A DNA stretch of 63,529 bases, the filler included, from Reclinomonas americana ATCC 50394 (lineage: Eukaryota): assembly GCA_048213135.1 (NCBI GenBank). It is 15 parts of 15 records of this genome, joined end to end, with 100 filler letters (N's around TTAATTAATTAA, not from the genome) between each part and the next. Parts side by side here need not be neighbours in the genome. Positions count along the whole stretch, not along the records: positions 1 to 24,744 come from AFZH01017329.1; 14 more parts are not named here. The stretch is one strand, 5' to 3'. Under the pieces are notes generated by a model, which saw nothing but the letters and a program-made list of their open reading frames with translations, was not told the origin of the DNA and did not search any database. Shown piece by piece: positions 13,201-49,235 of the stretch. The position numbers were made by a program, and so were the translations under genes. Every line of letters starts with the position of its first letter. Position 1 is the first letter of the stretch.

Positions 13201-14206
13201 CCGACGATGCCAACTTGCTGTTGCGAGTTGTGTCGGCGTGTCTCTCGGGTGGCCGACCGTCGTCGGTGGTGACGGCGGTGCTGGCCCGCAGCGGCTTGCT
13301 CGGCTATCTGTCACACGACCTGACACACTGGTCGCACTCGCGGCGGTATCGAGCGCTGGCGCTCCTCAGTTCGTGGGTGTGCGGCGGCGAGGCGGCGTGC
13401 TTGGATGTGGCGCAGTGCGGCTTCATTTTGCCGGCGCTGCTGGAGCTGCTGAAGCTGGACGAGCAGATACCGATTGAGCCACTGGTGCCTACGGAGCCGC
13501 CGGCAGAGTTCACACTGGCCGGCGGCTCGCATGTGTACGAGGATCCGTACGTCAGCGACCGTGAGCATGTGGCGCACTCGATGAAGACGTGCTTCCACCG
13601 ACTGGCCTCCACGTACGACTTTGCGGAGCACGCGGCTGTGCTGCGTGTGCTGGCGACAACGATGCGATGCGGACTCGGCGCCGCCCAAGAGCTGTCGCGT
13701 GATGCCGGAGTCGGACGAGCGCTGGTCGCCTTTGTGCCGCACCACATGGAGAAGCGCACCGTCGCCACGCTTACCGAGGCATTTGAGGCGTTGCATTACT
13801 TTGCCGTGGCCAGTTGCGTTTCTACTGCCACAGCCTCTCTCTCTCCTCACTGACACTGACGAACCACAAAAAAAAAACGCGTGCAGATCCAGCGAATCAG
13901 AACGACCTGCTCGACGCCGACGTGTGGCGAGCAGTACGCGAGGCTCTGCAGGCGATGAATCACGCGGAGAGTGGCGTGGCCACCCATCGACTACTGTACC
14001 TGACGTGTTTGGTGTGCTACGCACTGGTGCCTCTGCTGGAGAGCGACGACGCGGCTGCGCAGGCCCGGGCCAGACGAGAAGCCATCTCCAACCACTTGTC
14101 GTCGCACCTGTCGCTGGCCATGCACGCCACCGAATTCGGCTCCGTCCCCGACAAGTTGCAGAGCGCCACCACCATCTGCTCCATGGTGCTGGGCACAAGA
14201 ATCTAG
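10256..14206 (+). CDS. Uncharacterised protein: two tandem ~85-aa N-terminal domains, EF-hand region, ARM/HEAT-like helical C-terminus
   Basis: Exons splice to MRTLQDLKTVEVIRKCG...; EF-hand-like LFEEIDMAGEGIISTEDF; Leu-rich helical repeats at 12.6-14.2 kb; stop TAG 14204-14206. Confidence 0.7.
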
Positions 14207-14690
14207 AGCGCGTTGTGCCTTTGCAGCCACCGTCCGTCTTCCCATTTGCCTCCCGTATTTCTTTCCTTCCTCCCGTGTATTCTCTCTCTCTCTCTCTTGT
14301 GTCTTGCTTCCTTAAGTTGCCTTGTCTTCCCTCTCTTTTTTTCACTCCCCACCTTATAACAGCCGTACTCGACGGCGAATGTAAACCGCCGAGCATTTTG
14401 TTTGAAGTCGCGCGCATGCGGGATGGGCGCAGCGCCTTTGCCCTCGCAATGGAAGTCGCCGCGCTTTTTGATCAGTCTTTCCCTCCTGGTTTCCGGTGGT
14501 TAAGACAAGGTTGGCTGACAGCGCCGAGGTCTTTGAAGTTGTGAAAGGTCTTGGAAGTTAAGTTTGCGCTTGCAAAAGTCCTATCATTTTTTCTTGCATC
14601 GCCGGTGAGCCAACCTCTCCCCCTTTTTTCCTCTTTTCCCTCCTCCTCCTCCCTTTCTCTGTGTTTATGTATGTGCTTGGGGTGGCCCTT

Positions 14691-14763
14691 ATGATGGTAC
14701 ATGCATGGACTGAAGCGCACGTCACGTACGCTGCGCCTGGGATGTCATTTTTGTTTTTGCTGA
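14691..14763 (+). ncRNA. Box C/D snoRNA, guide to SSU rRNA ~49-58 (predicted U52, yeast numbering)
   Basis: C ATGATGG, guide ACATGCATGG (14699-14708), D' CTGA 14710-14713, D CTGA 14760-14763, terminal stem TGGCCCT/AGGGTCG. Confidence 0.7.
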
Positions 14764-15173
14764 AGGGTCGCAACCTCGCACCGTGCTGCGCCTTTGTCGA
14801 AAGAGAGAGTACTGCCCTCCCGTCTTCATTCGCCCTCGTCTCCTCTCCTCTCCTCTCCGCTCTGCTGCCTTGTTTTGTTGTTGTGGGTGTGGTGCTGATG
14901 CACATGCACATGCACATGACCTGCCACCACCAAACTTTGTGCACTCTTTTTTCTCTCCATGTGCGTCTGTGGGTCGGGGCGGGGCATGCCAACTGTGATG
15001 GTGCGTTGCCCGTGTGCTCACTCTGTTTTGCTCGACGCAGAATGCCGACTATGACGAAGACGTGATTATGCAACACGGACAACCACAACCGCACTTGCCA
15101 ATGTGTGCTGCGCGCCACGAGTGAACGCAATAAGGTGAGGCGCTGTGTGTGTGTGTGTGTTTTTCCTTTCCTT

Positions 15174-15264
15174 GTGCATGATGTACATGGCCGACCATGG
15201 CGTTTGCCACTCGCGTACATAACCAGCCCTCAGCGCTCTTGCTGTGTGCTGCTGGGTCAATTGA
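15174..15264 (+). ncRNA. Possible small structured RNA in host intron 2 (H/ACA-like or degenerate C/D)
   Basis: Hairpin, ANANNA (ACATAA 15217-15222), second hairpin CCAGC..GCTGG; no canonical ACA. Alternative reading ATGATGT...TTGA. Confidence 0.3.
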
Positions 15265-15493
15265 ACGCGTAGATCCCTCATTCTTCCTCCTTGTGTCTGT
15301 TTCTCTTGCTCTCTGTCATCGTGCATTTTCCCTCTGCCCAAGTACTGATGTCTGTTCGGTTTTTTCTGCTGACCAGAGACGAGCGTGGCGATGAGACCAG
15401 GCTGCAGCACCGGGGTCGTCGACAGTGGGGTGAGTGTGATGCGTGTGTGCAGGCAGAGAGCCACTTTGCCCCCTCGTGTGTGTGCACTTCTTA

Positions 15494-15559
15494 GTGATGC
15501 ATTTTTACAAGCATATGAGTGATTCCTACGGGAAGTTGAGCACCTACCAAGATCTCTGA
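15494..15559 (+). ncRNA. Box C/D snoRNA, dual guide: SSU Am28 (snR74/U27-type) and LSU Cm1437 (snR24/U24-type)
   Basis: C GTGATGC; ACAAGCATATGA (15507-15518) complementary to SSU UCAUAUGCUUGU before D' GTGA; TACCAAGATCT (15545-15555) complementary to LSU AGAUCUUGGUG before D CTGA. Confidence 0.88.
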
Positions 15560-15757
15560 AACAATGTGCACCACTTCGTTGCTGCTTGACGTGCACTGTG
15601 AGAGAGCGATGTGATGTCTAATGAGTTTGTGTGTGCTGATTGCAGGATATCCTCGTCAAGTGCCTCTGCACGGGCCACGACATGTATGACGAAGAGAGGT
15701 GAGTGTTGTGGGAAGAATGTGTGTGTGTGGACACACAAAGCGGGAGAGATTGCATCG

Positions 15758-15831
15758 GAGATGATTTCCATTTCTAAAGACACGACTCGAAAGAAGTATG
15801 AGTGATCTTTACTAGTTTCAGCCTTATCTGA
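15758..15831 (+). ncRNA. Box C/D snoRNA, guide for SSU Gm1126 (snR41-type)
   Basis: AGTTTCAGCCTT (15814-15825) complementary to SSU AAGGCUGAAACU; D CTGA 15828-15831; variant C box GAGATGA; stem ATTGC/GCAAT. Confidence 0.8.
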
Positions 15832-16052
15832 GAGCAATGCACCGTCCACAAGGCGTGTTTGTGGTGTGAAGTGACACACGTGCTGATTTGTGTTTTTTTC
15901 CGCTTGGCAGATTATATTCGTGCTCCTTCTGTTGTCGCAACGGCCACTGCTCGCTCTCCCTGTCGAGGTTTGTGGAGGGCAGTGTTTCCCACCCTTTTTG
16001 CCTCTTTTCTTTTCCTCTACTCTTTTCCCCTTCCTCCTGTATGTGTGTTCGA

Positions 16053-16121
16053 ATGATGATAACGTGCTGCCCCAGTCTTAGGGTTGATGCTGATACAGCT
16101 TGACATTGCACGTCAGTCTGA
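16053..16121 (+). ncRNA. Box C/D snoRNA, dual guide: LSU Gm2619 (snR67/U31-type) and LSU Am876 (snR72-type)
   Basis: C ATGATGA; GTGCTGCCCCAG (16064-16075) vs LSU CUGGGGCGGCAC before D' CTTA; TTGCACGTCAG (16106-16116) vs LSU CUGACGUGCAA before D CTGA; stem GTTC/GAAC. Confidence 0.9.
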
Positions 16122-16365
16122 TGGAACCTCCTTTGTTGCTTTCCTTGCCGTCACACTTTCTTGGCTCTCCCTCGCTCTCTCTTTTTGTGCCGAAAGTGTT
16201 TTGGGGACGCTTGGCACTTGTTTTGGTGTTGACGGTGTGGCTGACATTTTGTCTGCCACTAGGTGTGCGTGCCGGCCCTGTGATCAGCTGACGACATGCG
16301 AGGTGATGGTGAGTGTGTGGATAGGAGTGTGTGTTTCAGCGTTCTCTTTTTGCCTGTGAGCGAGC

Positions 16366-16433
16366 GTGATGATAGTATTATTGTACTCCGAGAGATTCGT
16401 CTTGATGATGTCTTACAATCCTACTCATTCTGA
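16366..16433 (+). ncRNA. Box C/D snoRNA, probable guide to LSU AUGAGUAGGA
   Basis: C GTGATGA, D' CCGA, C' TGATGA, guide TCCTACTCAT (16419-16428), D CTGA, stem GAGCGA/TCGCTT. Confidence 0.82.
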
Positions 16434-16623
16434 TCGCTTATCTCTTCTCCTCGTGTTTCGTGTTCCTCTCTCCTGCCTCGGGCGCTAACAAGCTGCGTAC
16501 GCAGAGAATGCCACGCGTTTTTGTCGCCACCATCAGTGTTGTCGCTGCCTGCCGTACACCAGTGGTGAGTGTGGTACTGCATGTGGGAAGGAGAGAGTTC
16601 CACCCGTTTTGTGTCCGTTGCCC

Positions 16624-16682
16624 GTGATGCAATTACAATTATCCCTGGCTTAGCGAAATCGTGCTGATTTAAGAGCCACTGA
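16624..16682 (+). ncRNA. Box C/D snoRNA, guide for LSU Gm2815 (snR38-type)
   Basis: C GTGATGC; TTATCCCTG (16639-16647) vs LSU CAGGGAUAA before D' CTTA; C' GTGCTGA; D CTGA; stem GTTGCC/GGCAGC. Confidence 0.82.
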
Positions 16683-16951
16683 GGCAGCTTTCATTTCCTC
16701 CTTGTTTGTTTCCTGTTTCTTTCATTGCTGCTTGTTTTGGCTGGTTGGCTGATGTTGTTGTTGCGGTGCGCAGATGGAGTGCCCTCCAAGGTCAATCATC
16801 TCGGCTTTGCTGGTGAGTGTGCATGTACACATTTGTCTGTTTGTGTGTGTTGGTGCCAGAGATGGGCGTGGGGAGATGGTATCGAGAGGCAGAGTGTGAG
16901 CATAATGGTGTAAACGCCAAGTGATTATCACTTTCTGTCATAGACAACGTG

Positions 16952-17003
16952 GTGCTGAAAAACCCTTTCGACATGAGATGTATGATGGCTTGTTGCACCC
17001 TGA
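16952..17003 (+). ncRNA. Box C/D snoRNA, targets unassigned
   Basis: C GTGCTGA, D' ATGA, C' ATGATGG, D CTGA 17000-17003, stem AGACAAC/GTCGTCT; candidate guides CCCTTTCGAC and TTGTTGCAC. Confidence 0.65.
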
Positions 17004-17191
17004 GAGTCGTCTGTGTGTGTGCGTGTCACATGCATGGTGTGAGCGACTGTGTGCTGACCTCTGTGCTCCGATGCAGGTTGATTCACCACATTTTGGCATG
17101 CTGCTCCACCCGCTCCCAGGCTCCTTTTCTTCTTGATCCCGTTTTAAGGTGTGTGTTTTTACCGTCATTCCTTTCTTTCTTGTGGCTTGGA

Positions 17192-17276
17192 ATGAGGAAT
17201 TTGTGAGGAAGTGCCGTCCGAGCTACATCCTAAATAATTTTTTTGTTTGCCGATGACGTAAAAACTCACTCACTGA
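17192..17276 (+). ncRNA. SNORD49: Box C/D snoRNA, U49-type (LSU Cm in GUCGGCUCUUCCU)
   Basis: C ATGAGGA; AGGAAGTGCCGT (17206-17217) matches the human U49 guide as recalled, including its internal U-U mismatch; D' CCGA; D CTGA; stem GTGG/CCAC. Confidence 0.85.
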
Positions 17277-17486
17277 CCACCGACACGCATACTGTTCCAC
17301 CTCTACCTTTTTGCGTGTGTTTCTGATCCGCATATTGTTGAATTGACTTGATTTTGTTGGCGACGCAGATCTTGTGCGAGGACTAAGAGTGGCGTGTACG
17401 CAATGCGTGATGAAGTGCAGATGCGCCCTGTCGTTGGTGAGTAGGGTGTGGGTGATGGGTGGGAATATGTGTATTGGTTTGAGTTA

Positions 17487-17600
17487 AGGATGAATTCTAG
17501 TCATGTGCGTCAAATGAGTTGTCTTTACTGGCGGCCCACGACGAGTTATTCGGCGTGGTGTCTATCCGGTCTAGACATTGATTATATCAATGACTACTGA
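17487..17600 (+). ncRNA. Long, structured orphan box C/D snoRNA
   Basis: C-like AGGATGA, D CTGA 17597-17600, flanking stem GAGTT/AACTC, internal helices TAGTCAT/ATGACTA, CCACG/CGTGG, GTCTA/TAGAC. Confidence 0.6.
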
Positions 17601-17841
17601 ACGAAAACTCGCCTCCTTTTGTGTGTCTCTTTTGTCTTTGGGTGTACATGGAACTCGTGTTGGTTGTGGGGGAGTTCCAGCTGCCACTCACCTCCATTCT
17701 TTGTTGCGCTTGTCATGTGCAGAAGGCGGGTGGTGGCGACGTGCTGAGGTTGCTGTTGCGAGGACGAGCGTGTTTGTGCAACGAGTTTGGTGAGTCGCCG
17801 CTGGCATTATATAGTATTTGTTGGGTTTCTACTGCCGGGGA

Positions 17842-17899
17842 ATGCTGAAAACCTTACGACATCGCGATCCATTCTGTGAGCACTGTCTCGTTCGTCTGA
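17842..17899 (+). ncRNA. Box C/D snoRNA, guide for SSU A1326 (human Am1383, U30-type)
   Basis: C ATGCTGA; GTCTCGTTCGT (17885-17895) vs SSU ACGAACGAGAC; D CTGA; stem GGG/CCC. Confidence 0.82.
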
Positions 17900-18090
17900 C
17901 CCTTGCACCCACTTTTGCTTGTCGAGTCGACCCCCAAAGTTGAGCTCTAACGTTTCCCCGTCACCTCTGTGTGTGTGCTGTGTTGCTGTGCAGATGGACA
18001 CGAGTGAGAAGAAGAGAGAGAGGTGTGTGTGATGTCGAGTGGTGGGAAAGGGGGGAGGGAGACGAAAGTATGTGTTTCTGCTCGATGTTT

Positions 18091-18162
18091 GTGATGAAAT
18101 TCTTGTCGAACACGCCAGTTCTGCTACTGAGCAACCATGACTGATTTGACAAAGATGTCTGA
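18091..18162 (+). ncRNA. SNORD38: Box C/D snoRNA, U38/snR61-type (LSU Am1133)
   Basis: C GTGATGA; CGCCAGTTCTGCT-A-CTGA (18113-18130) vs LSU AGCAGAACUGGCG; D CTGA; 10-bp stem TTCTGCTCGA/TTGAGCAGAA. Confidence 0.92.
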
Positions 18163-18360
18163 TTTGAGCAGAAGGGTTCTACAGTGTGCATGTTTCCTTT
18201 CTATCAACAAATCACGTAGCACTTTAAACTCACTCTACCCTCCTCTGCTTTGCTGCTACTGCAGGCATTCTGCTGACGCGTCCAAGCCACGGACAAGGAT
18301 GTGTTGGTGAGTCGCGTGTCTGTCTGCTGTTAGCGAGTTCTCTCGTGTGTCTTTATTCTT

Positions 18361-18421
18361 ATGATGACATCACTACACGACGGTCTTATGAGAACATCGT
18401 GATTCTATATGTGTATGCTGA
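18361..18421 (+). ncRNA. SNORD35: Box C/D snoRNA, U35/snR73-type (LSU Cm2959), copy 1
   Basis: C ATGATGA; CACGACGGTCT (18376-18386) vs LSU AGACCGUCGUG; D' ATGA; D CTGA 18418-18421. Confidence 0.88.
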
Positions 18422-18618
18422 TTCCGTACTCTACACTGTTGCTTGTATCTGTCGCCATGCTGGTGTACGTGTGATGCTCATGATGGTGTTTGTGACTCGC
18501 AGGCGACGCGAACCGACGTTGAAGACGCCCCGAAGTTAGTTGCAGGCATTACTGCTGAAAGAGGTTTGTTCACTTTCTCTCTTTTCTCCTTTCCTCTGTG
18601 GTTTGGTGGAGCACGTCG

Positions 18619-18678
18619 ATGAGGACACAACACGACGGTCTAATGATATCTCATGATTCATTCGTTCTGCAATTCTGA
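18619..18678 (+). ncRNA. Box C/D snoRNA, dual guide: LSU Cm2959 (U35-type, copy 2) and 5.8S Gm75 (U96-type)
   Basis: C ATGAGGA; CACGACGGTCTA (18631-18642) before D' ATGA; TTCTGCAATT (18665-18674) vs 5.8S AAUUGCAGAA before D CTGA; stem GGAGCA/TGCTCC. Confidence 0.88.
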
Positions 18679-18865
18679 GCACTGCTCCCTTACCTTGTTG
18701 GGTTGTGTGTGTGTGTTTCACTTGTCGTCGCACCAACTCATTTGTGGTCAATTCAATGCAGGGTCTCTCCCTGTTTCGCGAGTCGAATACCCTGCAAGGT
18801 TTGTTTCGTGTGCTGAGCCACGAAAAAGAGAGGGAAGAATATGTAGAGGCGTGAGCTTGCACGAA

Positions 18866-18932
18866 GTGATGAATACGATCACCATCTTTCACCTGAGTGA
18901 CTGTGATGTAAACCTATCGTCAGTCCTTCTGA
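18866..18932 (+). ncRNA. Box C/D snoRNA, guide for LSU Am807 (snR39/snR59/U51-type) plus a possible SSU guide
   Basis: C GTGATGA; TCACCATCTTTC (18879-18890) vs LSU GAAAGAUGGUGA; D' CTGA; C' GTGATGT; GTCAGTCCTT vs SSU AAGGAUUGAC; D CTGA; stem GCACG/CGTGC. Confidence 0.92.
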
Positions 18933-19103
18933 CGTGCTACCTATCTTGCTGCTTGTCGCTCTGTCCACTGCCGTCATCGACTCGTCGTCCCACTTATGTT
19001 GCTTTGCTGTGTATTGCAGGTGCACGGATTGTTGCGCGCTCGGCATTGACAGATGGTTAGTGGTGTCTTCTGTTGGTTGTAGAGCAGTGAGGTGTGGTTT
19101 TGA

Positions 19104-19163
19104 AGGATGAAAGTGCGAACGGGCGGTCTGAAATACAATTGGTGGAAACGCGTTCACGTCTGA
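19104..19163 (+). ncRNA. SNORD43: Box C/D snoRNA, U43/snR70-type (SSU Cm1639)
   Basis: C-like AGGATGA; ACGGGCGGT (19119-19127) vs SSU ACCGCCCGU; D' CTGA; D CTGA 19160-19163. Confidence 0.82.
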
Positions 19164-19330
19164 CATGTACGAGAGGGGGAGAGAGAAACATGAGTTGGTG
19201 GTTTTCTCTGAACGAGCTCTCATGTGTATGTTTTTGGTTGTTGTGCAGAGTGTCGTGCAAACTGCAGGAGTGCTTGTTGAGAACAATGAATCGACTTTTC
19301 AAATTGAAAACAGTCTATTCATTCTTTGTG

Positions 19331-21140
19331 TCATCTCCAATCGGGCTTTGATGACTGCTGTTCCTCCACGTCGGCGGCCTGTACCCCCTTGGCCAGCGCA
19401 TACGAGTGTGCAATACGCCGCACAAATGCGGGTGCCGATCCGACCTGCGGTGCAAAGGTGCACTCGGCCAGCTGTCGCTCCAACTGCGCCGCCTGCAGAC
19501 GCTGCCGTTTCAGTTCGGCCTCCTCGTGCTGGAGCTGCATACAACAACCAAAGAATGACGACTGAGTACGATAAAAGGAGAGCAACACAGGCGCGTACAA
19601 ACACACCCGTATGCGCTCCATGAGTGTGTCGGGGTCCGAGTGCACACGGAGGGCACTCTTGGCGCCGGCGCTGTGGATTTCCGGTCGGAAAGTTGCACTC
19701 TCCATCTCCTTGTTGCTGAGATGCTGGCGAAGCATATCTTGCTTCTTCATGCGCCGCCGATACTCCTCAGTACTGAGTTCCTCGACGGTGCGCGGCCGTC
19801 TCTTTTTCGACGTCTTGTTGATGCGCGGCTGAAATGTGCAGTCGGGGTTGTCGTCGCGCTGCTCCGTGCGCTGTGGTGCGATGAGTGCGCGAATGCGCTT
19901 GACACACACAACACACACAAACCATCCTGTCCATCGAATTCTTCCTCTGCAAATGATACTCCTGCCGCCGCAGAAATGTTGTACCACTGCACGTCTTGGC
20001 CGCCAATTGCTGCGAACCGGGGCACAGGAGGGTCGGTGGAGGCACACTCTGCACAGCCCACGTGCGTGTGTGAGAGAGAGTGACACACAGAGGCAACAAG
20101 AGAGGTGCGGTGGCGACGGCACACCTGCTGCTCCTGCTGTAACCGAACGGAATGGACGTGCGCCTGGCGGGTGGACTCGAGTCGCTGCTGCCGGGCCAGG
20201 AACTGCGAAAATGACTCGACAGTCGACGCAGACGAAGCAGGTCGACCCGACAGCGACGAGGCACCGTCGGCGGCGGCCGACTCTGGCGACGAGCCGTGGC
20301 GCGCATAAATTGGTGTGTTCCTCGTCGGCTGACTCCGCAAACGCGCCTTCTGCTCCCCCTCGGCCACCAGCATCTTCATCATGCTGCTCATGAGATCACG
20401 CGAGGCCGTGACATTTGCCGCCTGCTCTCGGATCTGCTCAGCAGAGAGAGAGGCGTTGAGCGACTGATCAACCAGCGGCGAGCTGGCAGCCGTGACGGGC
20501 GGCGCCGAATATGTAGTCGACGCCACTGCAACAGGAGCGGCGAATGGGCGTCGATAGAAGGAGGAGAAGAAGAAGAAGGCCAGCGTGGCGCATACCTGCA
20601 CCGCTGACGTTGGTCAGCCGGTGAAACGTGGGCTGGTACAAGTACGTCGTGGCACTGGCGAGCGTCGGTGGCGGCGCCGGCTCCTCCTCCGCCGCCGTGC
20701 TGCGCCACGTCACAGACGGAGATGGCGCCCTCCAACGCGACGATACAGACGACGAGAGCGAGGACGGCGGTGGTGGTGTGGGATGATACTGGTTGATCTT
20801 GGGTGTGAAGGTGAACTCGGACTCGGCGGCCGACGCAGCAGACCGGCGTTCTCGTCGCGGTGTTGTGCTACTCCCACCCCACACTCCAATGAGTCACTGC
20901 CAGCACAAGAACAACAGGCAGGAAGCGCGGGTCGACTGCACTGCACCTCTGGCGCGCCTTGGCCAGCGCGGCCCACTGACGGGAACTCTCGCTGATTTCC
21001 GGCTGAAACGTGCACACGGCACTCAGTCGCGCCGCCTGCTCCTGAGCCAGTTCTTCGAGTCGCTGCTGGTTCTTGGCGCTGGCCGAGTTCAGATACAGCC
21101 GTTCGCTGGCACGAATCCCGCGATCTGGGCTTTTCGCTCC

Positions 21141-22105: not shown

Positions 22106-24583
22106 ATGAAGGTGATCATCGACAAGGTGACTACGCAGCGCGGCACGCAGCCGCCCAATCCAACATTTCCGCACGCGTGCGTGTTTGCCACGAGCGGAGC
22201 CTCGGGCGATCCCGTCATGTGGATGTTTGGCGGTGCGGAGGAGCGACTGGCCGGCCGCGTGGTATTCTCCAACGCTGTCTACGCCTTCCACTTTGGTGAG
22301 TGAAGAGGGAGAGAGAGTGCGCGCACAGTGTGTGTCGCTGATTGACGCGTGCCAACTGTCGGACTCAATCATCGCCATGGTGATCGCATTGCAGGCAATG
22401 CCAGCTGGGAAAAGATTGAGCCGGTTGGCGCCGAGTATGGGCCGGGTCCGCGCGCCCTCAGCGGCGTCGCCGCCTGCACTGCCAACAACAAGTTTTACGT
22501 ATTCGGCGGCTACGATGTGCTGGACGGCAAATACAGGGTGCGTGCAAATTCTCCTCTCCTTCTCTCTGTTCCTCGCATACTGCCTCCTCCTTGATCCTCT
22601 GCTACGATTCTCATTATATTTGTCTCTCTTGGGGGGGGGCACAGTGCTTCAATGGCCTCTACGCCTTCGACACGGTGACGCGCACATGGGAGACGGTCAC
22701 CATGAAGGGTACGCCCAGCGTGTTCTCTCTTTCTTTCTTTATTTTCTTGCTCAATGTGTACGTTGATGCCCGTCGACAGGTGATGTGCCAGAACCGCGTG
22801 CCGGTCCCGCCATGGTGTGCGTCGGCAAGTACATGTTCATCATGGGTGGCTCGCAGGGCTCGGATCGCTTTTTCAACGATCTCTACGCGTTTGACACGGG
22901 TACGCATTTCTGTGTGCTCATGCACACCCACATACACGCATACGCACATAAGCACTCACCCACTTCGGAACATTCCGCAGAGACAAACCTGTGCCGCATG
23001 ATCTCCAGCGTGGCTGCACCAGTGAGTCCACGTTGCGGTCATTCCATGTGCCTCGTGGGCAGCCGCCTCTACGTGTTTGGCGGGTGGACTCGACAGGGTA
23101 GCCGACAGCTGTCGCTGAACGATCTGCACATCTACGACCTCGGTGAGCGCTGTGTGGAGAGTGTCGTTCTGCAGCAAAGAAGCACACAACAGCTGCTAAC
23201 AATCGCTGCGCGTGGTCAGACCTCGAGGACTGGCTACCGGAGAGAATGTGCCGCACTCGAGGCGCCCTGCCGACGGCTCGCACCGGACACGCCAGCGTCG
23301 TCGTTGGCTCCAGCATGTTTGTCATCTGCGGCGGTCTCACCAACAACCACCCGCGCAAGTCGGTGCACTGGCTGGACACGAGTTGCGTTCAGAGAAGGGG
23401 CGCACGAAGCTGCCACGCACGCAAGCCATAGAAGGGGGTGCTCACTTGCGTGCCTTGGTGACATGCAGCCAAGATGAAATGGCACCGTGCGGACGAGCTG
23501 CCGCACTGCATCGGCTGTGCTGCCGTCGCCCATCCGACGCTGCCGCAAATCTACTGCTTTGGTGGTGTCGGATTCCGCACCACTCGCAAAGAGGGCGGAT
23601 CAACATTCATCGAGAGCAACGACATGTACGTGCTCTCTGTCGGTGAGTTTTCTCTTTTTGCAAACGTGTACCGTACTTTCCATGCGACACTGCCCTCAAC
23701 ACCACCATCATTCATTGCCTCGTAGCCGACGGCCGCAGCCGCGGTCGCTCCTCACCCGTAAAGTGGGGCGGCTTCAAGTCGGTGCGCGACGAGGCCCACG
23801 TGAGTCACGCGGACGCAGAAGACACGGCAGAAGGCGTGTTCGAGTCCTCATCACGCCACGAGACCATGGCCGCCGCCGCCGCCACGACTGCCGTGGCCCC
23901 GCCGCCACCTCCACCCCCGCCATCACCACAGCAGGTTGTCGCGGTAATTGTCACGCCGTCGGCAGTCTCGACGGCAGTGTCAACCCCCGCAACGACTGCA
24001 TTGTCGACTCCCTTCGACGACATGGTCGACACAACCCTCGACATCACCACCGTCGTGAAGGCCCCGTACCAATCACCACTGCATGGTGGAAGCGGTCGAC
24101 AGTTGCCGGATGACACCCTGATCTTCCCCGTCACTCCGGAGCGCGAAAAGAAGGCACCGGCAAAGGACGCTGTGGCAGCGCCGGCAGAGGACGATTTGTT
24201 CGCGTTCTCCGCAATGGAGCACTCGGTATGTGGTACTACACCCGTGTAAAACTTTTTTGATTTCCTCGCCGCTCACAACCTGCATCCCTTCGCCGGCTCC
24301 CCAGGTTCCTGCGTACGACGAGAATGCGATCGCCATTGGTCACCAGCTCTCCAGTGGCAAGGGCATGGCCGTCGGCAGCAAGATTGCGTTTGAGTCGGTG
24401 TTCTCCGACAGCAGCTCAAGTGCCACTGGCGCCTCTGACATGCCGTTGGCGGTCCCGTTGCGCGACACCACCAATGCGGTGCTCGCCAACAAGAAGAACA
24501 CGCCGAACACTGTCCGCCGCTTGCGAGTGCGCGACGAGTTCTTCCGGTCGGTGCTCGACGGTGAGAGCTCTCCGCCCTTTGTC

Positions 24584-24744: not shown

Positions 24745-24844
24745 NNNNNNNNNNNNNNNNNNNNNNNNNNNNNNNNNNNNNNNNNNNNTTAATTAATTAA
24801 NNNNNNNNNNNNNNNNNNNNNNNNNNNNNNNNNNNNNNNNNNNN
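24745..24844. other. Artificial scaffold linker N44-TTAATTAATTAA-N44 (also at 32701, 34117, 36349, 39599, 41047, 42158, 43662, 47930, 49236, 52625, 54421, 57619, 61796)
   Basis: Identical 100-bp blocks with a six-frame stop motif. Confidence 0.99.
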
Positions 24845-32593: not shown

Positions 32594-32800
32594 TGTGTGT
32601 GGTGGCGGCGGTACGGAACGGAAACCTAACCGACCGACCGACTACTACTACGTACGTACGGTACGGTACGGGACGGACGACGACGACTACGTCGTCGTCC
32701 NNNNNNNNNNNNNNNNNNNNNNNNNNNNNNNNNNNNNNNNNNNNTTAATTAATTAANNNNNNNNNNNNNNNNNNNNNNNNNNNNNNNNNNNNNNNNNNNN

Positions 32801-33636: not shown

Positions 33637-35006
33637 CTTGTGAAGGAAAAGTCAGTCGAAGCGAAGGATATGGCGATCGAAGAAGGAGAAGGCATTCAAA
33701 GCAAAGGCAGGCCGTTTGAAGAAACAACCAAAGCGAAGGATAAGGCAATCAAAGAAGGAGGCGGCACTCAAAAAGCAAAGAACAAGTCAGTCGAAGCGAA
33801 GGATATGGCGATCAAAGAAAGACAAGGCATTCAACGCAAAGGCAGGCCGTTCGAAGAGACAACCAAAGCGAAGGATAAGGCGCTGAACGTGAAGGATGAA
33901 GCATACAAATGCAAAGGTGGGGGGCGTTCGAGGTGAACAAAGAGACAACTAAAGCGAAGGAGAAGGCGATCGCAGAAGGAGAAGGCATTCAAAGCAACGG
34001 GTGGAGTGTTCGAGGAGAACAAAGAGACAACCAAAGCGAAGGATAAGGATACAAAGCAAGTGTTCAAAGCGAAGCAACTGAAATGTGCGACGATTCTCTC
34101 CCTCTCCCTCCCTCCCNNNNNNNNNNNNNNNNNNNNNNNNNNNNNNNNNNNNNNNNNNNNTTAATTAATTAANNNNNNNNNNNNNNNNNNNNNNNNNNNN
34201 NNNNNNNNNNNNNNNNGAGTACGGCGAAGACGACCCGTACGTATACGAGCTCGAGGATCCGGATCTGGACGGCGGTATCCCTGACACCGTTTCGGCTGGC
34301 TTTGACATGGACTTGGTCGTGACGTGCATCGACGATTTGAGAGCTTCTTCCTCGTACTACGGGCTCGAGTCATCGTCGACCGTCCTCACGATCGGCCACG
34401 GCAACGTCGAGTTCCAGGAAGGCTGTGCCTACGACACCGGCAACGAGGGCGTCAGTGTGGACCACTTCTACGAATTCGTTGTGCTGGTAATGCCGCTGCC
34501 GAAGGATGTGTTTGGCAAGCAGTCGACGCCTCCGCAGTGATGGCTCGCGCGCTTCGAATTCCGATTTTGGAACCTCTTCCGCTGCGTGCATATTTCATGT
34601 TGTTCTTTTGACTGTGAGTTTTTAATGGGACTCTCTGCAGTACTTGCCTGAGTGAAACCCTTTTCTCATCGTTCATCTCGAGTGAGATACGCATGCTCCG
34701 TCAGCCGTGTTCTTCCAAATGAAGGCTACGTTGTTCGAACCATTGGTTTTTCGTACACTTATGCGTGCCAGAGAGATAGATAACTTGCCACCATCAACTA
34801 AACTATGCAAGCGCACAAGGATACAAAACACCGAAACGAGCTGCCACGTGTGGCACAGGTGTAACCTTCTCTCCGACACACAAACAGAACAAGCATTCTT
34901 TGGACAGAATGCCTAATACAACCACGCTTATGCGGTGAAGATCGCATGCGCAGTTCTCGACGGAAAGATGTTGTTGCAAGCACTGCGCCTGCGCGGAAGC
35001 TGCAGC

Positions 35007-36095
35007 TCACGGGTGCAAATCAGGATCCGCGAGGCACCGATGCACCACGACCTCGGCCTCCTCCACCACGAAGCAGCGGAAGACAAGCTCCGGCAGGCAC
35101 CGCGAATCCGACTCTTCCTCGTGTTGCATCTCCTGCAGTGTGTGCATCGCCGACCGCGCAACGATGAGCTCCAGGCGAGCGAGACCGCTCGGCGTGGACC
35201 ACACCCGCACGGTGCTGTCGTGACTCCCACTGATAATGTGCTGACCGTCAGGAGAGACGGCCACAGCGTACACCATTTCTGTGTGACCCTGCAGTCGTCG
35301 CACCACTTGCCCACTTGCCAGCGACCACACCCGCACGATGCTGTCTTGACAGCCGCTCACCACGTACTGTGAGTCGTGAGTGACTGCGACAGAAAACACC
35401 ATTCCCGCGCGTTTCTCCGCCAGCTGTTGCGCCTCGTCTCCGCTCGCCAGCGACAGCAATCGCAATGTTTGGTCGCTCCCACTCACAACGTGCTGACCAT
35501 CGGGAGTGACTGCGACAGCGATAACCACTCCTGCACCTGTGTGTCCTCGCAACTGTCGCACTTGCTCCCCACTTGCCAGTGACCACACACGCACTGTTTG
35601 GTCACTGCTCCCACTCACAACGTGCTGACCATCGGGAGTGACGGCGACAGACCACACCGACCAAGTGTGACCCTCTAAGCGGCGCACTTCTTCCCCGTTC
35701 GCCAGTGACCACACCCGCACCGTCATGTCTGGACTCCCACTCACGGCATGGCGACCATCGGGAGTGACAACGACAGACATCACCCATCCATTGTGTCCCT
35801 CCATGCGTCGCACTTCTTTTCCACTCGCCAGCGACCACACTCGCATGGTCTTGTCATGACTACCACTCAGTATGTGTAGCCCATCGGGGGTAACGGCGAC
35901 ACACGTCACATCCCTGGTATGTCCCTCCAGCCGCCGCACTTCCTCTCCGCTCGCCAGTGACCACACTCGCACCGAGTGATCATCACCGCCACTCACAATG
36001 TGCTGACCATCGGGGGTGACCGCCACACACCACACCGTACCCGTGTGTCTCTCCAGCACACGGTGGGCGAGGAAGAGAGGAGAGGTGAGTGCCAT
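35007..36095 (-). CDS. Intronless WD40-repeat protein, tandem copy 1
   Basis: About 7 near-identical repeats VRRLEGHT..V..VAVTPDGQHVVSGS.D.TVRVWSLASGEE plus a shared ~55-aa C-terminal domain. Confidence 0.92.
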   Translation of the reverse strand: MALTSPLFLAHRVLERHTGTVWCVAVTPDGQHIVSGGDDHSVRVWSLASGEEVRRLEGHTRDVTCVAVTPDGLHILSGSHDKTMRVWSLASGKEVRRMEGHNGWVMSVVVTPDGRHAVSGSPDMTVRVWSLANGEEVRRLEGHTWSVWSVAVTPDGQHVVSGSSDQTVRVWSLASGEQVRQLRGHTGAGVVIAVAVTPDGQHVVSGSDQTLRLLSLASGDEAQQLAEKRAGMVFSVAVTHDSQYVVSGCQDSIVRVWSLASGQVVRRLQGHTEMVYAVAVSPDGQHIISGSHDSTVRVWSTPSGLARLELIVARSAMHTLQEMQHEEESDSRCLPELVFRCFVVEEAEVVVHRCLADPDLHP

Positions 36096-36202
36096 GGTGT
36101 GAGAGAGGAGCCAATTTGCGCAAATGGACGAGGTCCTGTGGCTCAGAAGACGACGTTCAACAGCACGAGTGCCTTCACTTCCTGGATGCATGCAAGGATC
36201 TA

Positions 36203-36242
36203 GGTTTTTGGTCAACCTTGACCTGCTAGTGTCCGGTTCGCC

Positions 36243-36326
<84 letters not shown>

Positions 36327-36570
36327 GAGGAGGAGAGAGAGACGACGANNNNNNNNNNNNNNNNNNNNNNNNNNNNNNNNNNNNNNNNNNNNTTAATTAA
36401 TTAANNNNNNNNNNNNNNNNNNNNNNNNNNNNNNNNNNNNNNNNNNNNAAGAAGCCGCAAAACGCCTAAGTCCTTCACTGACGCCGGGTTTGGCGCAACC
36501 CGCAGGCTGTCAGCCGCCGGGTTGTAACCCGGCGAACCGGACACTAGCAGGTCAAGGTTGACCAGAAACC
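36203..36570. mobile_element. TIR DNA transposon or MITE spanning an assembly gap
   Basis: 44-bp TIRs 36203-36246 and 36527-36570 (1 mismatch, GG...CC ends); 8-bp TSD AGGATCTA (36195-36202)/AGGATGTA (36571-36578); paralogous empty site at ~37860-37890. Confidence 0.85.
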
Positions 36571-36659
36571 AGGATGTAATCACCAATAGTACATTTCACG
36601 AAAAGGGGGAGACAGTGAAGGAGGAGACAAGATTACACGCCTCGCTTCGCGATCGCGAC

Positions 36660-37754
36660 TCACAGGTGCAACTCCGGATCCGCGAGGCACCGATGCACCA
36701 CGACCTCGGCCTCCTCCACCACAAAGCAGCGCAAGACAAGCTCGGGCAGGCACCGCGAATCCGACTCTTCCTCGTGTTGCATCTCCTGCACTGCCTGCAT
36801 CGCCGACCGTGCAGTGATGAGCTCCAGTCGAGCGAGACCGCTCGGCGTGGACCACACTCGCAGGGTGTTGTCTTGACTCCCACTGATAATGTGTTGACCG
36901 TCAGGAGAGACGGTGACAGAGTACACTGTGCCTGTGTATCCTTTCAACCGTCGCACCACTTGCCCACTCGCCAGTGACCACACTCGCTCGGTCGTGTCAG
37001 AACTCCCACTCACCACGCGTTGACCATCGGGAGTGATGGCGACAGACCGCACCCATCCAGTGTGTCCCGTTAACTGTAGCACTTCCCTGCCACTCTTGAG
37101 GGACCACACTCGCGCGGTCTTGTCCTCGCTCCCACTCACAACGTACTGAGAGTCGGGAGTGACGGCGACAGACATCACCGCCCAAGTGTGACCCTCCAAG
37201 CGGCGTACCTCATCGCCACTCTCCGCACGCCACACTCGGATGGTATTGTCAACACTGCCACTCACAACATGGTGACCATCGGGGGTGATGACTACAGATG
37301 TCACCCATCCAGAGTGACCCTCCAACCGGCGCACTTCCTCTCCGCTTGTCAATGACCACACTCGGATCGTCATGTCACTACCCCCGCTCACAACTTGCTG
37401 GCCATCGGGAGCGACAGCAACACACCACACGTCTCCGGTATGACCCTCCATTCGTCGCACCTCTTCGCCACTCGCCAGTGACCACACGCGCACTGTCTTA
37501 TCTCGACTCCCACTCACCACGCACTGTGAGTCGAGAGTGACGGCAACACAGTTCACCTTCCCAACGTGCCCCTCCATTCGCCGCACTTCTGCAACACTCG
37601 CCAGCGACCACACACGCACTGTCGCATCAGCACTGCCACTTACAATGCACTGGCCATCGGGAGTGGTAGCGACAGATTGCACTGCTTCTGTGTGACCCTC
37701 CAGGATACACTCGCGGAGGAAGAGAGGTGAGGCGAGTGCCACGCGGGCTGTCAT
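36660..37754 (-). CDS. Intronless WD40-repeat protein, tandem copy 2
   Basis: Same repeat consensus and C-terminal domain as copy 1. Confidence 0.92.
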   Translation of the reverse strand: MTARVALASPLFLRECILEGHTEAVQSVATTPDGQCIVSGSADATVRVWSLASVAEVRRMEGHVGKVNCVAVTLDSQCVVSGSRDKTVRVWSLASGEEVRRMEGHTGDVWCVAVAPDGQQVVSGGSDMTIRVWSLTSGEEVRRLEGHSGWVTSVVITPDGHHVVSGSVDNTIRVWRAESGDEVRRLEGHTWAVMSVAVTPDSQYVVSGSEDKTARVWSLKSGREVLQLTGHTGWVRSVAITPDGQRVVSGSSDTTERVWSLASGQVVRRLKGYTGTVYSVTVSPDGQHIISGSQDNTLRVWSTPSGLARLELITARSAMQAVQEMQHEEESDSRCLPELVLRCFVVEEAEVVVHRCLADPELHL

Positions 37755-37928
37755 TGCGCAAGAGGGGAGCTGAGGTGATCGCCATTTCGCGCGCAAAATG
37801 GACGCCCGTAACTCCGCAGCGACCCTGCAACAGCTCGAGTGCCTTCACTCCCTGGATGCATGCAAGGATCTAACCACTGATAGTACATTCCACGAACAGG
37901 GAGGGAAAAGCGAGAGTATACAAGTGAC

Positions 37929-39038
37929 TCACAAGTGCAACTCAGGATCCTCGAGGCACCGATGTACCGCGACCTCTGCGTCTTCGACTATGAAGCAGCG
38001 CAAGACGAGCTCGGGCAGGCACCGTGAATCCTCTTCCTCGCGTTGCATCTCTTGCACTGCGTGCATGGCCGACCGCGCAGCGTCGAGCTCCAGCCGAGCG
38101 AGACCGCACGGCGTGGACCACACCCGCACAGTCTCGTCATTGCTGCCACTGACAACGTGCTGGCCGTCCGGAGAAACGGCGACAGAGAACACCCATCCAG
38201 CGTGTCCCTCCAGTCGCCGCACCTCTTCTCCACTCGCCAGCGACCACACCCGTACTGTGCGGTCTGCGCTCCCGCTCACAACATGCAGACCATCGAACGT
38301 GATGGCGACCGAGGACACCTGCGCCTTGTGCCCCTCCAATCGCCGCGCTTCCCCGTTGCTACCCATTGGCCACACGCACACGGCCTTGTCTCGACTGCCG
38401 CTCACCACATGCAGCACGTCGCGAGTCACCGCCACACAAATCACCGCATCCGTGCGCCCTTCCAACCGTCGCACCTCCTCGCCACTCGCCAGCGACCACA
38501 CACGCACAGTAGAATCATGACTCCCACTCACAACGTGCAGCGAGTCAGGCGACGTCGTGCAGGCGACCGACGTAACCCACGTCGCATGGCCCTTTAACAG
38601 CCGCACCTCCTCTCCACTCGCCAGTGACCACACACGTACGGTATTATCCGCGCCTCCGCTCACCACATGCAGCCCATCGGGAGCAACTGCGACGGAGAAC
38701 ACCGGCGACTTGTGGCCCTCCATGCGTCGCACCTCCTCGCCACTCGCCAGTGACCACACGCGCACGGTCTTATCTTGACTCCCGCTCACCACGCACTGCG
38801 AGTCGGGCGTGCAGGCGACCGACATGACGTCGTCTGTGTGGCCGTCAAGTTGCTGCATGAGCGCGCCTGTTGCCAGTGACCACACGCGCACGGTCGTGTC
38901 TTCACTGCCGGATATAATGCGCTGGCCGTTGGGGGTGATGGTGACGCACCAGACGATGCTGGAGTGGCCTTTGAGCTCAAGGCGGTCGACGAAGCGCATT
39001 TTTCGTTCTTTGGGAAACGAAGGCGAAGGGTCCTGCAT
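37929..39038 (-). CDS. Intronless WD40-repeat protein, tandem copy 3
   Basis: Same repeat consensus and C-terminal GLARLELDAARSAM..RCLPELVLRCF domain; start 39038 or 38999. Confidence 0.92.
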   Translation of the reverse strand: MQDPSPSFPKERKMRFVDRLELKGHSSIVWCVTITPNGQRIISGSEDTTVRVWSLATGALMQQLDGHTDDVMSVACTPDSQCVVSGSQDKTVRVWSLASGEEVRRMEGHKSPVFSVAVAPDGLHVVSGGADNTVRVWSLASGEEVRLLKGHATWVTSVACTTSPDSLHVVSGSHDSTVRVWSLASGEEVRRLEGRTDAVICVAVTRDVLHVVSGSRDKAVCVWPMGSNGEARRLEGHKAQVSSVAITFDGLHVVSGSADRTVRVWSLASGEEVRRLEGHAGWVFSVAVSPDGQHVVSGSNDETVRVWSTPCGLARLELDAARSAMHAVQEMQREEEDSRCLPELVLRCFIVEDAEVAVHRCLEDPELHL

Positions 39039-39143
39039 GACACCTGACGTTTCCTTCTCACACGACGACGCAAGGAGAGCGTTGGCAACGTTGTTGTGTG
39101 TGTGCAAGTGTGTGCGTTTGTGTGAGAGAGCTAGACTGGCAAC

Positions 39144-39776
39144 ATGGACGACGATCATGCGGTGTGTGTGCTGTGTTGTGTGTGAGTGGCATGTCCATGT
39201 CAAACTTGCACTTGCTCACTCGTCTCTCTCTCCCTCCTCAGCGACTGTGGAGGATCAGGTACTGTCTACCTCTCTCTCTCTCTCTCACACACACACTCTC
39301 TCTCACGCACACACACACACACACTCTCTCTCTCTCTCTCACTCTCACTCTCTTGTGTCTCTGATTGTGTGTGATTTGTAGGAGGACTGTGCTGGCGATG
39401 CTCAAGGAGCGCGGCTATGTCATTCAGGATGAGGAGCATAACATGCCTGCAGAGCGGTTTACAGTGAGTAATCATGCATTCGTGCATGTGATTGATTTGC
39501 ATTCTCTTTCTCTTCTTTATCTCTTGTCTCTCTCTCTCTCTCTCTCCCCGCTGTGGAGCACAGTACTCTGCGCGTTGCTTTCGTTCTTCGTTCACTTCNN
39601 NNNNNNNNNNNNNNNNNNNNNNNNNNNNNNNNNNNNNNNNNNTTAATTAATTAANNNNNNNNNNNNNNNNNNNNNNNNNNNNNNNNNNNNNNNNNNNNAC
39701 GTACGTACGTACGTACGTACGTACGTACGTACGTACGTACGTACGTACGTACGTACGTACGTACGTACGTACGTAC

Positions 39777-40779: not shown

Positions 40780-41240
40780 GTGTCTCCCCGTGGTGCTGTA
40801 GCCCCTGCGTGTCTCCCCGTGGTGCTGTAGCCCCTGCGTGTCTCCCCTTGGTGCTGCGTGTCTCCCCTTGGTGCTGTAGCCCCTGCGTGTCTCCCCTTGG
40901 TGCTGTAGCCCCTGCGTGTCTCCCCTTGGTGCTGTAGCCCCTGCGTGTCTCCCCTTGGTGCTGTAGCCCCTGCGTGTCTCCCTTGGTGCTGTCGCCCTGC
41001 GTGTCTCCCTTGGTGCTGTCGCCCTGCGTGTCTCCCTTGGTGCTGTNNNNNNNNNNNNNNNNNNNNNNNNNNNNNNNNNNNNNNNNNNNNTTAATTAATT
41101 AANNNNNNNNNNNNNNNNNNNNNNNNNNNNNNNNNNNNNNNNNNNNTCCCTCGTTGCTGTCGCCCCTGCGTGTCTCCCTCGTTGCTGTAACCCCTGCGCG
41201 TCTCCCTCGTTGCTGTAGCGCCTTCGTGTCTCCCTTGGTT
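40780..41240. repeat. Minisatellite, 27-29-bp unit GTGTCTCCCCTTGGTGCTGTAGCCCCTGC, interrupted by gap
   Basis: About 10 head-to-tail copies before the gap and degenerate copies after it. Confidence 0.9.
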
Positions 41241-42069: not shown

Positions 42070-42288
42070 AAAGCACACGAAGTCTGAATTACACAAAGAT
42101 TCACTTTTCACAATCAGAGTAACTGCACTCACACAGACGATCTCTCCCCTCTCTCACNNNNNNNNNNNNNNNNNNNNNNNNNNNNNNNNNNNNNNNNNNN
42201 NTTAATTAATTAANNNNNNNNNNNNNNNNNNNNNNNNNNNNNNNNNNNNNNNNNNNNACCTACCTACCTCCTCCTCCTCCTCCTCCTC

Positions 42289-47929: not shown

Positions 47930-48032
47930 NNNNNNNNNNNNNNNNNNNNNNNNNNNNNNNNNNNNNNNNNNNNTTAATTAATTAANNNNNNNNNNNNNNN
48001 NNNNNNNNNNNNNNNNNNNNNNNNNNNNNCTA

Positions 48033-48112
<80 letters not shown>

Positions 48113-48361
48113 TCTCACTCACCGCTCGGCGAGTAATCGATATGCAGGCTCGCAATCATCCAACGTGATGCCCGCAACGCGCATCGACGCAGGCGCAGAA
48201 GAAGACGAAGAACCTGAGAGAAGAGAGAGAGTGAGTGAGTGAGTGAGTGAGTGAGAGAGAGTGAGAGAGCGAGTGAGAAGAAGAGGGCAAAACACCTTCG
48301 CTCATCCTCAAAACACACAGTCACTGGCGACAATGCTCGCTCTCTCCACTGTCTCTCTCTC

Positions 48362-49197
48362 ATGGCCGACACGGACGACGAGCACACTGCCTCTGCTGCT
48401 GCTGCTCCCACTGCTGCTCGTTGGGCACTCGTTCTGCACGGAGGCGCAGGAGTCATCAGTGAGTGAAGAGGGAGGGAAAAGAGCGCGCGAAAAATTTTCC
48501 GAACACCATTCGCACCTCCTCGCTCTCTGTCTCTCTCTCGCTTGCTCACTCACTCACTCCCTCTTTCACTCACTCACTCACTCACTCACTCACTCACTCA
48601 CTCACTCGCCTGTCTCTCTCTCTCTCTCTCTTTCTGTTATCAGGTGCAGACTCGTTTCTGCATGTTCAAGAGGAGCATCGCGACGCGTTGCGCGCTGCAC
48701 TGGACGCTGGCATTGCTGTCTTGTCTGCAGGCGGTCGAGCAGTGGATGCCGTCGAGGTGAGCTGCTTTGCAATTTGCTTGTTCACAGAGTGTGCTTTATC
48801 TTGTCGTGCAAGGCCACGGTGTGCTCGTTGGAAGACTGTCCGCTGTTCAATGCCGGTCGAGGCGCGGTCTACAACGAGGCGGGCTTTCATGAGCTGGACG
48901 CGTGCATGGCGGATGGTGGGTTGTGTTGTCGTGTTCGTGTAATTGCTTCTTGGGTTCTTGCTTCTCTGTTGAGCTAAGCTGTTCCCTTGTTCACTCTTCA
49001 CTTGAGCAGGGCCTCCTCTGTCTCCGCTCCTGGGTTGATCAGAGACAACCACTGCATCTTCACTTCCCGCTCTCTTTCCGCATGAGCAGAAGTCTCCTTC
49101 AGATTCCTCTGCTCTGTTGGCATGCGTTGAGCTGAGCAACCACTGCCCCTTCTCTTCGTGTTCACTCACCACATGCATGGCTTTGATCAGAGTTCTC

Positions 49198-49235
<38 letters not shown>

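Follow-up and report, generated by a model that had tools for sequence, protein, structure and literature searches.

Results

A predicted snoRNA host locus built of short exons and GT-AG introns

We analyzed a 63,529-nucleotide stretch of the Reclinomonas americana ATCC 50394 assembly GCA_048213135.1 (the window), and within it a region of the + strand that an earlier note, made by reading the sequence, had described as a hidden non-coding host gene for intronic small nucleolar RNAs (snoRNAs) of the box C/D class. The predicted non-coding snoRNA host gene extends from 14470 to 19330 (+), both ends being approximate, and parses into 17 exons of 29-135 nucleotides (nt) and 16 GT-AG introns of 192-436 nt, in agreement with the roughly 17 short exons with clean splice signals that had been noticed before. 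At 0.48-0.55, the guanine-cytosine content of the locus is below that of its flanks (about 0.6), and the + strand of the locus is rich in T. Fifteen of the 16 introns contain one box C/D-like unit, and 14 of these units carry a guide that pairs in the correct register with conserved ribosomal RNA (rRNA).

Splice sites were placed by eye from the locations of the motifs. Exon 1 (14470-14604), whose start is undefined, has 1, 3 and 1 stop codons in its three frames, and exon 2 (15041-15134) is closed in all three frames (2, 1 and 1 stops), as had been claimed for it. Exons 3 to 9 follow at 15377-15429, 15646-15698, 15911-15967, 16263-16308, 16505-16564, 16774-16812 and 17077-17148, exons 10 to 16 at 17369-17436, 17723-17789, 17994-18022, 18265-18306, 18503-18563, 18762-18798 and 19020-19055, and the last exon, 17, at 19249-19330, where the 3' end is undefined and no polyadenylation signal was identified. 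All 16 donors have the form G/GTNNG (the slash marking the splice site), 11 of them reading GTGAG, while the acceptors end in CAG in 15 cases and TAG in one, with GCAG in 13 of the 16. Because CGCAG also ends three introns of neighboring protein-coding genes (asparaginase-like and Kelch), this acceptor type is the organism's own. The split Asparaginase_2 and Kelch genes that served for this splice-site comparison lie at 48255-51033 (+) and 22767-23477 (+), respectively.

A copy of YCTTTYY, a TCT/terminal oligopyrimidine (TOP)-like pyrimidine initiator motif that may mark the transcription start, stands at 14476-14482 (+), some 130 nt before the first donor. It is the single copy between 14400 and 14620; as the whole + strand holds 68 copies, the motif on its own is weak evidence.

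Each of 15 predicted introns contains a single box C/D unit

Introns 1 and 3-16 contain exactly one C...D'...C'...D unit each, which bears out the earlier count of one unit in 15 of the 16 introns. The D box is CTGA in every unit, and the C box matches RTGATGA exactly in five units, with one mismatch in nine and with two mismatches in one; the span from C to D ranges from 59 to 114 nt. The earlier note had credited nearly all units with a terminal stem. This holds for 11 of the 15, in which the stem duplex has a free energy (dG) of -5.6 kcal/mol or lower, and fails for the units of introns 5, 8, 13 and 16, in which the stem is weak or absent.

The intron 1 unit (14679-14774) has its C box (ATGATGG) at 14691, its D' box (CTGA) at 14710 and its D box at 14760, closed by a stem with a dG of -14.5 kcal/mol, and is followed by the units of intron 3 (15482-15571; C GTGATGC at 15494, D' GTGA at 15519, D at 15556, dG -9.1) and intron 4 (15749-15838; C GAGATGA at 15758, D at 15828, dG -6.5). 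The intron 5 unit (16047-16127) combines C ATGATGA at 16053, D' CTTA at 16077 and D at 16118 with a stem of 4 base pairs (bp; dG -3.8). In introns 6 and 7, we find units at 16356-16441 (C GTGATGA at 16366, C' ATGATGT at 16405, D at 16430, dG -10.2) and 16617-16688 (C GTGATGC at 16624, D' CTTA at 16649, D at 16679, dG -10.0). The weakest candidate, in intron 8 (16916-17008), has an uncertain C box (GTGATTA at 16921), D' CTGA at 16955, C' ATGATGG at 16982 and D at 17000. A SNORD49-like unit occupies intron 9 (17182-17288; C ATGAGGA at 17192, D' CCGA at 17218, D at 17273), and a long unit occupies intron 10 (17480-17611; C AGGATGA at 17487, D' ATGA at 17514, D at 17597).

Intron 11 carries a unit at 17833-17907 (C ATGCTGA at 17842, D at 17896, dG -10.2) and intron 12 one at 18079-18170 (C GTGATGA at 18091, D' CTGA at 18127, D at 18159, dG -9.2). 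The units of intron 13 (18356-18426; C ATGATGA at 18361, D' ATGA at 18388, D at 18418, no terminal stem) and intron 14 (18605-18690; C TCGATGA at 18616, D' ATGA at 18643, D at 18675, dG -10.7) are tandem paralogues in their 5' halves, sharing the C and C' boxes as well as the D' box with its guide, and are told apart by the D guide. The last two units lie in intron 15 (18859-18937; C GTGATGA at 18866, D' CTGA at 18893, C' GTGATGT at 18903, D at 18929, dG -8.3) and intron 16 (19099-19168; C AGGATGA at 19104, D' CTGA at 19128, D at 19160, with a weak stem of dG -1.9).

Intron 2 (15135-15376) is the sole intron without a recognizable unit. It contains a C-box-like ATGATGT at 15178, but a check for a C/D or H/ACA unit found no D box, guide or stem and nothing convincing overall, and its fold z-score is only -1.77.

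Guides are complementary to conserved rRNA in the expected register

The guides were compared with rRNA references gathered by means of generic primer sites, independently of the guides. A generic primer site for the large subunit (LSU) in metagenome contigs gave at least 107 stretches, and 7 LSU references were used; for the small subunit (SSU), a generic primer site in genome contigs gave 79 stretches, mostly bacterial, of which four had a eukaryote-type motif and three were used. Rfam confirms one reference as a complete eukaryotic LSU with 5.8S (L016), one as LSU (L033) and one as a complete SSU (L148), and the remaining seven were accepted by landmark motifs only. Conserved k-mers were defined as those present in at least five of the seven LSU or at least two of the three SSU references. 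When k-mers were taken from the whole of the reference sequence, spacers included, chance 11-mers dominated the outcome (321 on the + strand, 349 on the - strand), and that scan was dropped.

Half of the conserved antisense 11-mers on the + strand (9/18) fall within the region, which makes up 7.6% of the window, compared with 1 of 11 on the - strand; for 12-mers the corresponding figures are 5/7 and 0/3. A test anchored to the box required that a CTGA have, 0-2 nt upstream, 10 nt or more of perfect complementarity to conserved rRNA. It was positive at 7 of the 40 CTGA motifs on the + strand of the region and at none of the 329 elsewhere in the window, both strands included. Further guide matches are supplied by variant D' boxes (GTGA, CTTA twice, CCGA and ATGA three times). 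In total, 14 of the 15 units have at least one register-correct guide to conserved rRNA, with guides intact over 9-13 nt. These comparisons support reading the units as likely methylation guides of the box C/D class.

Predicted methylation targets

We took as target the rRNA nucleotide opposite the fifth nucleotide of the guide, counted upstream from D or D' (the fifth-nucleotide rule). Coordinates refer to L148 for SSU and to L016 for LSU and 5.8S, after subtraction of the starts given by Rfam, and pairing is given as Watson-Crick (WC) and G-U (GU) pairs. Yeast numbers are approximate equivalents assigned from the sequence context, and human sites assigned to targets include 18S Am1383, 28S Cm4426 (U49), 28S Cm3787 (SNORD10) and 5.8S Gm75.

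On the SSU, the D' guide of intron 1 would direct methylation to U52 in the 5' region, not a yeast site (10 WC + 2 GU), and its D guide to A976, approximately yeast Am974 (10 WC + 3 GU). The intron 3 D' guide points to A28, yeast Am28, of U27/snR74 type (12 WC), and the intron 4 D guide to G1129, approximately yeast Gm1126, of snR41 type (12 WC, 2/3 SSU references). For the intron 11 D guide the target is A1329 (11 WC, 2/3 SSU references), which is the A1326 of the earlier note and not a yeast site; for the intron 16 D' guide it is C1644, approximately yeast Cm1639, of U43/snR70 type (9 WC, 3/3 SSU references).

LSU targets predominate among the other units. The intron 3 D guide matches C1460, approximately yeast Cm1437, of U24 type (11 WC + 1 GU, 7/7 LSU references), and the two guides of intron 5 match G2618 (D'; approximately yeast Gm2619, 12 WC + 2 GU) and A894 (D; approximately yeast Am876, 11 WC, 7/7 LSU references). 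The intron 6 D guide, with only 8 WC and additional GU pairs, is directed at A845, not a yeast site, and the intron 7 D' guide at G2813, approximately yeast Gm2815 (9 WC, 6/7 LSU references). A guide of intron 9 targets C2877 (6/7 LSU references). The intron 10 D' guide targets C2304 in the LSU core through 11 bp (one of them GU), a mismatch and then 4 WC + 1 GU, the full 17 bp being present in 4 of the 7 LSU references. In intron 12 the D' guide points to A1155, approximately yeast Am1133, of U38/snR61 type (13 WC, 6/7 LSU references). The D' guides of introns 13 and 14 both point to C2957, approximately yeast Cm2959, of U35/snR73 type (11 WC, 6/7 LSU references, and 12 WC, respectively), and the intron 14 D guide to 5.8S G74 (10 WC + 1 GU). 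Finally, the intron 15 D' guide matches A825, approximately yeast Am807 (12 WC, 7/7 LSU references).

For the intron 8 unit, the best rRNA pairing found is 9 bp long with a G-U pair at the fifth position, and this unit may be either an orphan or degenerate. The units of introns 7, 12, 13, 15 and 16 have orphan D guides. The intron 8 unit and several second guides could act on substrates other than rRNA.

Among the sites that it lists, the yeast table in PMC5699541 includes 18S Am28, Am974, Gm1126 and Cm1639 as well as 25S Am807, Am876, Am1133, Cm1437, Gm2619, Gm2815 and Cm2959. Base identity agrees with all of these, position being approximate, and the offsets to yeast numbering drift smoothly (0, +2, +3 and +5 for SSU; +18, +18, +22, +23, -1, -2 and -2 for LSU). 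In the test of the guides as antisense elements, eleven guides, at 10 distinct sites with Cm2959 hit twice, coincided with known yeast sites of the right base. Sites were equated with the human families U27, U43, U38, U24, U31, snR38 and U35 using Table 1 of PMC8817022. Every guide assignment on the earlier list of sites could be reproduced with the fifth-nucleotide rule, and four further candidate sites were added. Four guides predict methylation that is absent from yeast, at SSU ~52, SSU ~1329, LSU ~845 and LSU ~2304.

Two further rRNA-like matches were observed in the window. At 49170-49183 (+), beside an assembly join and with no C/D boxes nearby, lies a 14-nt sequence perfectly complementary to the conserved 5' region of the SSU that is also the target of the intron 1 D' guide; because its core is palindromic, sense and antisense are indistinguishable, and similar 10-11-mers occur at 17027 (+), 9483 (-) and 45824 (+). 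In addition, 18927-18937, the intron 15 D box with its 3' flank, is identical on the + strand to an 11-nt LSU stretch from the target region of the intron 5 D guide, probably by chance.

Comparison with Rfam families

A comparison with Rfam had been proposed as a check on the original prediction. No gathering-level match was obtained in the window, and the sub-threshold matches are nearly all to C/D-box families on the + strand. At E <= 10, there are 21 such matches in 14000-19800, 17 of them to C/D-box families, all on the + strand; the four others include TCL6_3 (-), HDV ribozyme (-) and the SMAD5-AS1_1 long non-coding RNA region (+). The top match of the intron 5 unit is DdR13, at 39.3 bits (E 3.2e-05) against a gathering score of 65, and snoU31b matches the same unit. 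The intron 12 unit matches snoZ223 (34.9 bits, E 4.7e-4) and the intron 7 unit snoR38 with a conserved guide (33.2 bits, E 0.015). In the intron 6 unit the last 11 nt of the D guide together with the D box are identical to the snoZ105 consensus. The alignments show identical guides for DdR13, snoZ223, snoR38 and snoZ105. The intron 9 guide equals the SNORD49 consensus over 13 bases, including the base that mismatches the rRNA (19.3 bits, E 0.052, with 781 nt searched). Weaker matches link the intron 15 unit to snoMe28S-Am982 and, as a full-length alignment, the intron 10 unit to the unusually long family SNORD10 (15 bits, E 1.2), whose guide has the same LSU target as that of intron 10 with the G-U pair placed differently.

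These data bear on whether the locus is non-functional, its units being decayed pseudogenes or chance combinations of boxes. Degenerate C boxes in ten units, the lack of a gathering-level Rfam match and the intron 8 unit without a target speak for this reading; against it stand the outcome of the anchored test (7/40 versus 0/329), register-correct guides in 14 of the 15 units, and guides intact over 9-13 nt together with 15 intact D boxes. We regard this as the least probable of the explanations considered.

Units are coupled to splice motifs at fixed distances

Between the end of the D box and the 3' splice site lie 71-102 nt in 12 of the 15 units (122, 141 and 277 nt in the others), and the 5' splice site lies 43-108 nt from the C box. 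In 10 of the 15 units, GTRAG occurs 40-110 nt upstream of the C box, whereas 2000 trials of random placement gave 2.2 on average and never more than 7; for GCAG at 65-110 nt downstream of the D box, the count is 12 of the 15 (random mean 3.85, maximum 10). The same intervals on the - strand contain GTRAG in no case and GCAG in six.

This coupling bears on a rival reading, a cluster of real snoRNAs that is polycistronic or individually promoted and processed by endonucleases, in which GT-AG introns would be incidental and no spliced host RNA would exist. Polycistronic clusters are used by plants and trypanosomatids, according to PMC2780460; GTGAGT is common throughout the genome, and the sequencing run that covers a small share of the locus gave unspliced, DNA-like contigs, with no spliced transcript observed. 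Against this, the splice motifs recur at set distances from the units far more often than random placement would give, the donors (G/GTNNG, 16/16) and acceptors (GCAG, 13/16) are as in the neighboring coding genes, and there is exactly one unit per interval, each interval consisting of acceptor, exon and donor. The acceptor spacing of 71-102 nt is also what the same source (PMC2780460) reports as needed for splicing-dependent processing. Whereas the plant and trypanosomatid clusters are recognized by closely placed snoRNAs with no intervening exons or splice sites, the units here are 190-440 nt apart. A cluster of this kind is an unlikely explanation for the locus.

The predicted exons hold no ORF longer than chance

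The spliced exon product, about 1031 nt long, has 9-13 stops in each frame. Its longest ATG open reading frame (ORF) is 117 amino acids (aa) long, while in 500 shuffles the longest stretch free of stops measured 96 +/- 26 aa. At the genomic level, a Pfam search of the 7 longest mechanical ORFs of the region found no family in any of them, and the longest genomic ORF (220 aa, - strand) has no homologue at E <= 0.001. These results are in line with the statement in the earlier note that the region lacks a credible ORF: none exceeds chance length, and the longest genomic ORFs are without a Pfam family. A codon-usage log-likelihood trained on WD40 and TPR ORFs was rejected as evidence, as it did not generalize to the Kelch exon (0.011).

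It could still be argued that the host is a protein-coding or micropeptide gene that happens to carry snoRNAs in its introns, for example one encoding the 117-aa Cys-rich ORF, which spans exons 3-9 and is present in the spliced product, and the codon-usage score could not exclude coding. However, this ORF is of a length that the shuffles also lead one to expect, its start is preceded by 243 nt of transcript with exons closed in all frames, and stops are abundant in each frame. We consider a coding host highly improbable, and the sequence supports the view that the short exons probably do not code.

Two ORFs on the opposite strand adjoin the locus. A convergent - strand ORF starts at 19331, and a 368-aa ATG ORF without a Pfam family (13311-14417, -) begins about 60 nt from the proposed host start; if the latter is real, both genes would have a very short divergent promoter in common.

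Other features of the window

Elsewhere, the window contains 14 copies of one construct, in which a 12-nt linker with stops in all frames is flanked by 44 N on either side, located at 24745-24844, 32701-32800, 34117-34216, 36349-36448, 39599-39698, 41047-41146, 42158-42257, 43662-43761, 47930-48029, 49236-49335, 52625-52724, 54421-54520, 57619-57718 and 61796-61895. The two that were viewed both adjoin CT/GA microsatellites. The constructs look like contig joins in a stitched assembly and not like biology. Three long WD40-repeat ORFs lie in tandem at 35007-39215 (-), and a TPR_10/TPR_12 ORF at 61844-63529 (+) runs off the window end.

Discussion

We conclude that the locus is probably, with a probability of about 0.8, a + strand gene of the UHG/GAS5/Drosophila-Uhg type that codes for no protein and serves as a dedicated snoRNA host. 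The UHG/GAS5-style host put forward in the earlier note is supported by the box architecture, the guide register, the coupling of units to splice motifs and the absence of a credible ORF.

Several observations weigh against this conclusion. The splice sites were chosen by eye, with a 2-nt ambiguity at three acceptors, and plain GTGAGT is not enriched (8 of the 70 + strand copies lie in the region, with about 5 expected). The only sequencing run over the locus is DNA-like and covers a small share of it, unspliced across 18603-19015; its two contigs match 18603-18763 and 18761-19015 identically, apart from a single 1-nt gap, and are uninformative on expression. As for the units, 10 of the 15 C boxes depart from the consensus, four units are without a good terminal stem, several second guides have no conserved rRNA target, and the intron 8 unit has neither a terminal stem (dG -1.7) nor a convincing conserved rRNA target. 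No Rfam match reaches the gathering score within the window, the rRNA references derive from other eukaryotes and not from this organism, and the codon-usage score failed to discriminate, a genuine Kelch exon (0.011) scoring as low as the 117-aa ORF.

From the sequence we infer how the predicted host would work, including its transcription start. A single RNA polymerase II transcript of about 4.9 kb would be spliced to an exon product of about 1 kb without a function of its own, while exonucleases would trim each excised intron to a box C/D small nucleolar ribonucleoprotein (snoRNP). Through the accumulating snoRNPs, 2'-O-methyl groups would be placed on the rRNA nucleotide that pairs with the fifth nucleotide of the guide, counted upstream from D or D'. 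The locus leaves the understanding of how such host genes work unchanged. Its interest lies in that protein-centered annotation misses such a gene, that the predicted host would supply about 15 guides for some 17 rRNA methylation sites, many of them universally conserved functional positions, and that it adds a data point on the spread of non-coding hosts with one snoRNA per intron. The possible TCT/TOP-type start, if real, would couple the supply of snoRNAs to the control of growth.

Should the organism belong to neither animals nor fungi, the Uhg architecture, by which we mean a dedicated non-coding host in which about 16 introns carry one methylation guide each at a fixed spacing to the acceptor, would be either much older than the opisthokonts or convergent, a suggestion that we offer tentatively. 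A literature search on such hosts in algae, choanoflagellates or amoebae found nothing relevant, which does not prove that none is in print; PMC3511168 has no passage on non-coding hosts.

With respect to individual snoRNA families, the guides and their target register are as in U27/snR74, U24, snR41, U31/snR67/DdR13, snR72, snoR38/snR38, SNORD49, SNORD10, U38/snR61/snoZ223, U35/snR73, snR39/59, U43/snR70 and snoZ105. The pairings of guides within one RNA are recombined relative to known families, with G2619 and A876 in one RNA and A28 and C1437 in another.

Among known host genes, mammalian UHG (SNHG1) and GAS5 are multi-exon non-coding hosts with poorly coding exons and one box C/D snoRNA per intron. 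They carry about 8-10 snoRNAs, fewer than the locus described here, and have a documented 5'TOP start, whereas here there is the motif at 14476 alone. The gas5 gene is also cited as such a host in PMC2780460. The same paper describes box C/D clusters I-V of Neurospora crassa as UHG-like hosts with only short ORFs (159-267 bp) and canonical splice sites flanking each snoRNA (PMC2780460). Their snoRNA-to-3'-splice-site distance is similar to that of the locus (PMC2780460), and the clusters themselves appear smaller.

The Drosophila Uhg genes have the same architecture and scale as the predicted host; PMC4430873 describes them as having no recognizable ORF and as carrying one snoRNA in each of up to 16 introns. 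The Uhg1 promoter has a reported Myc E-box, and none was noticed on reading the sequence upstream of 14470, where no formal scan was made. Drosophila Uhg1 encodes 16 snoRNAs, and a deletion from its first to its last exon covers about 4.2 kb (PMC4430873). The earlier description of the locus as very large for its class was therefore overstated: because Uhg1 holds 16 snoRNAs in a comparable span, the predicted host is comparable to the largest single-copy hosts, not beyond them.

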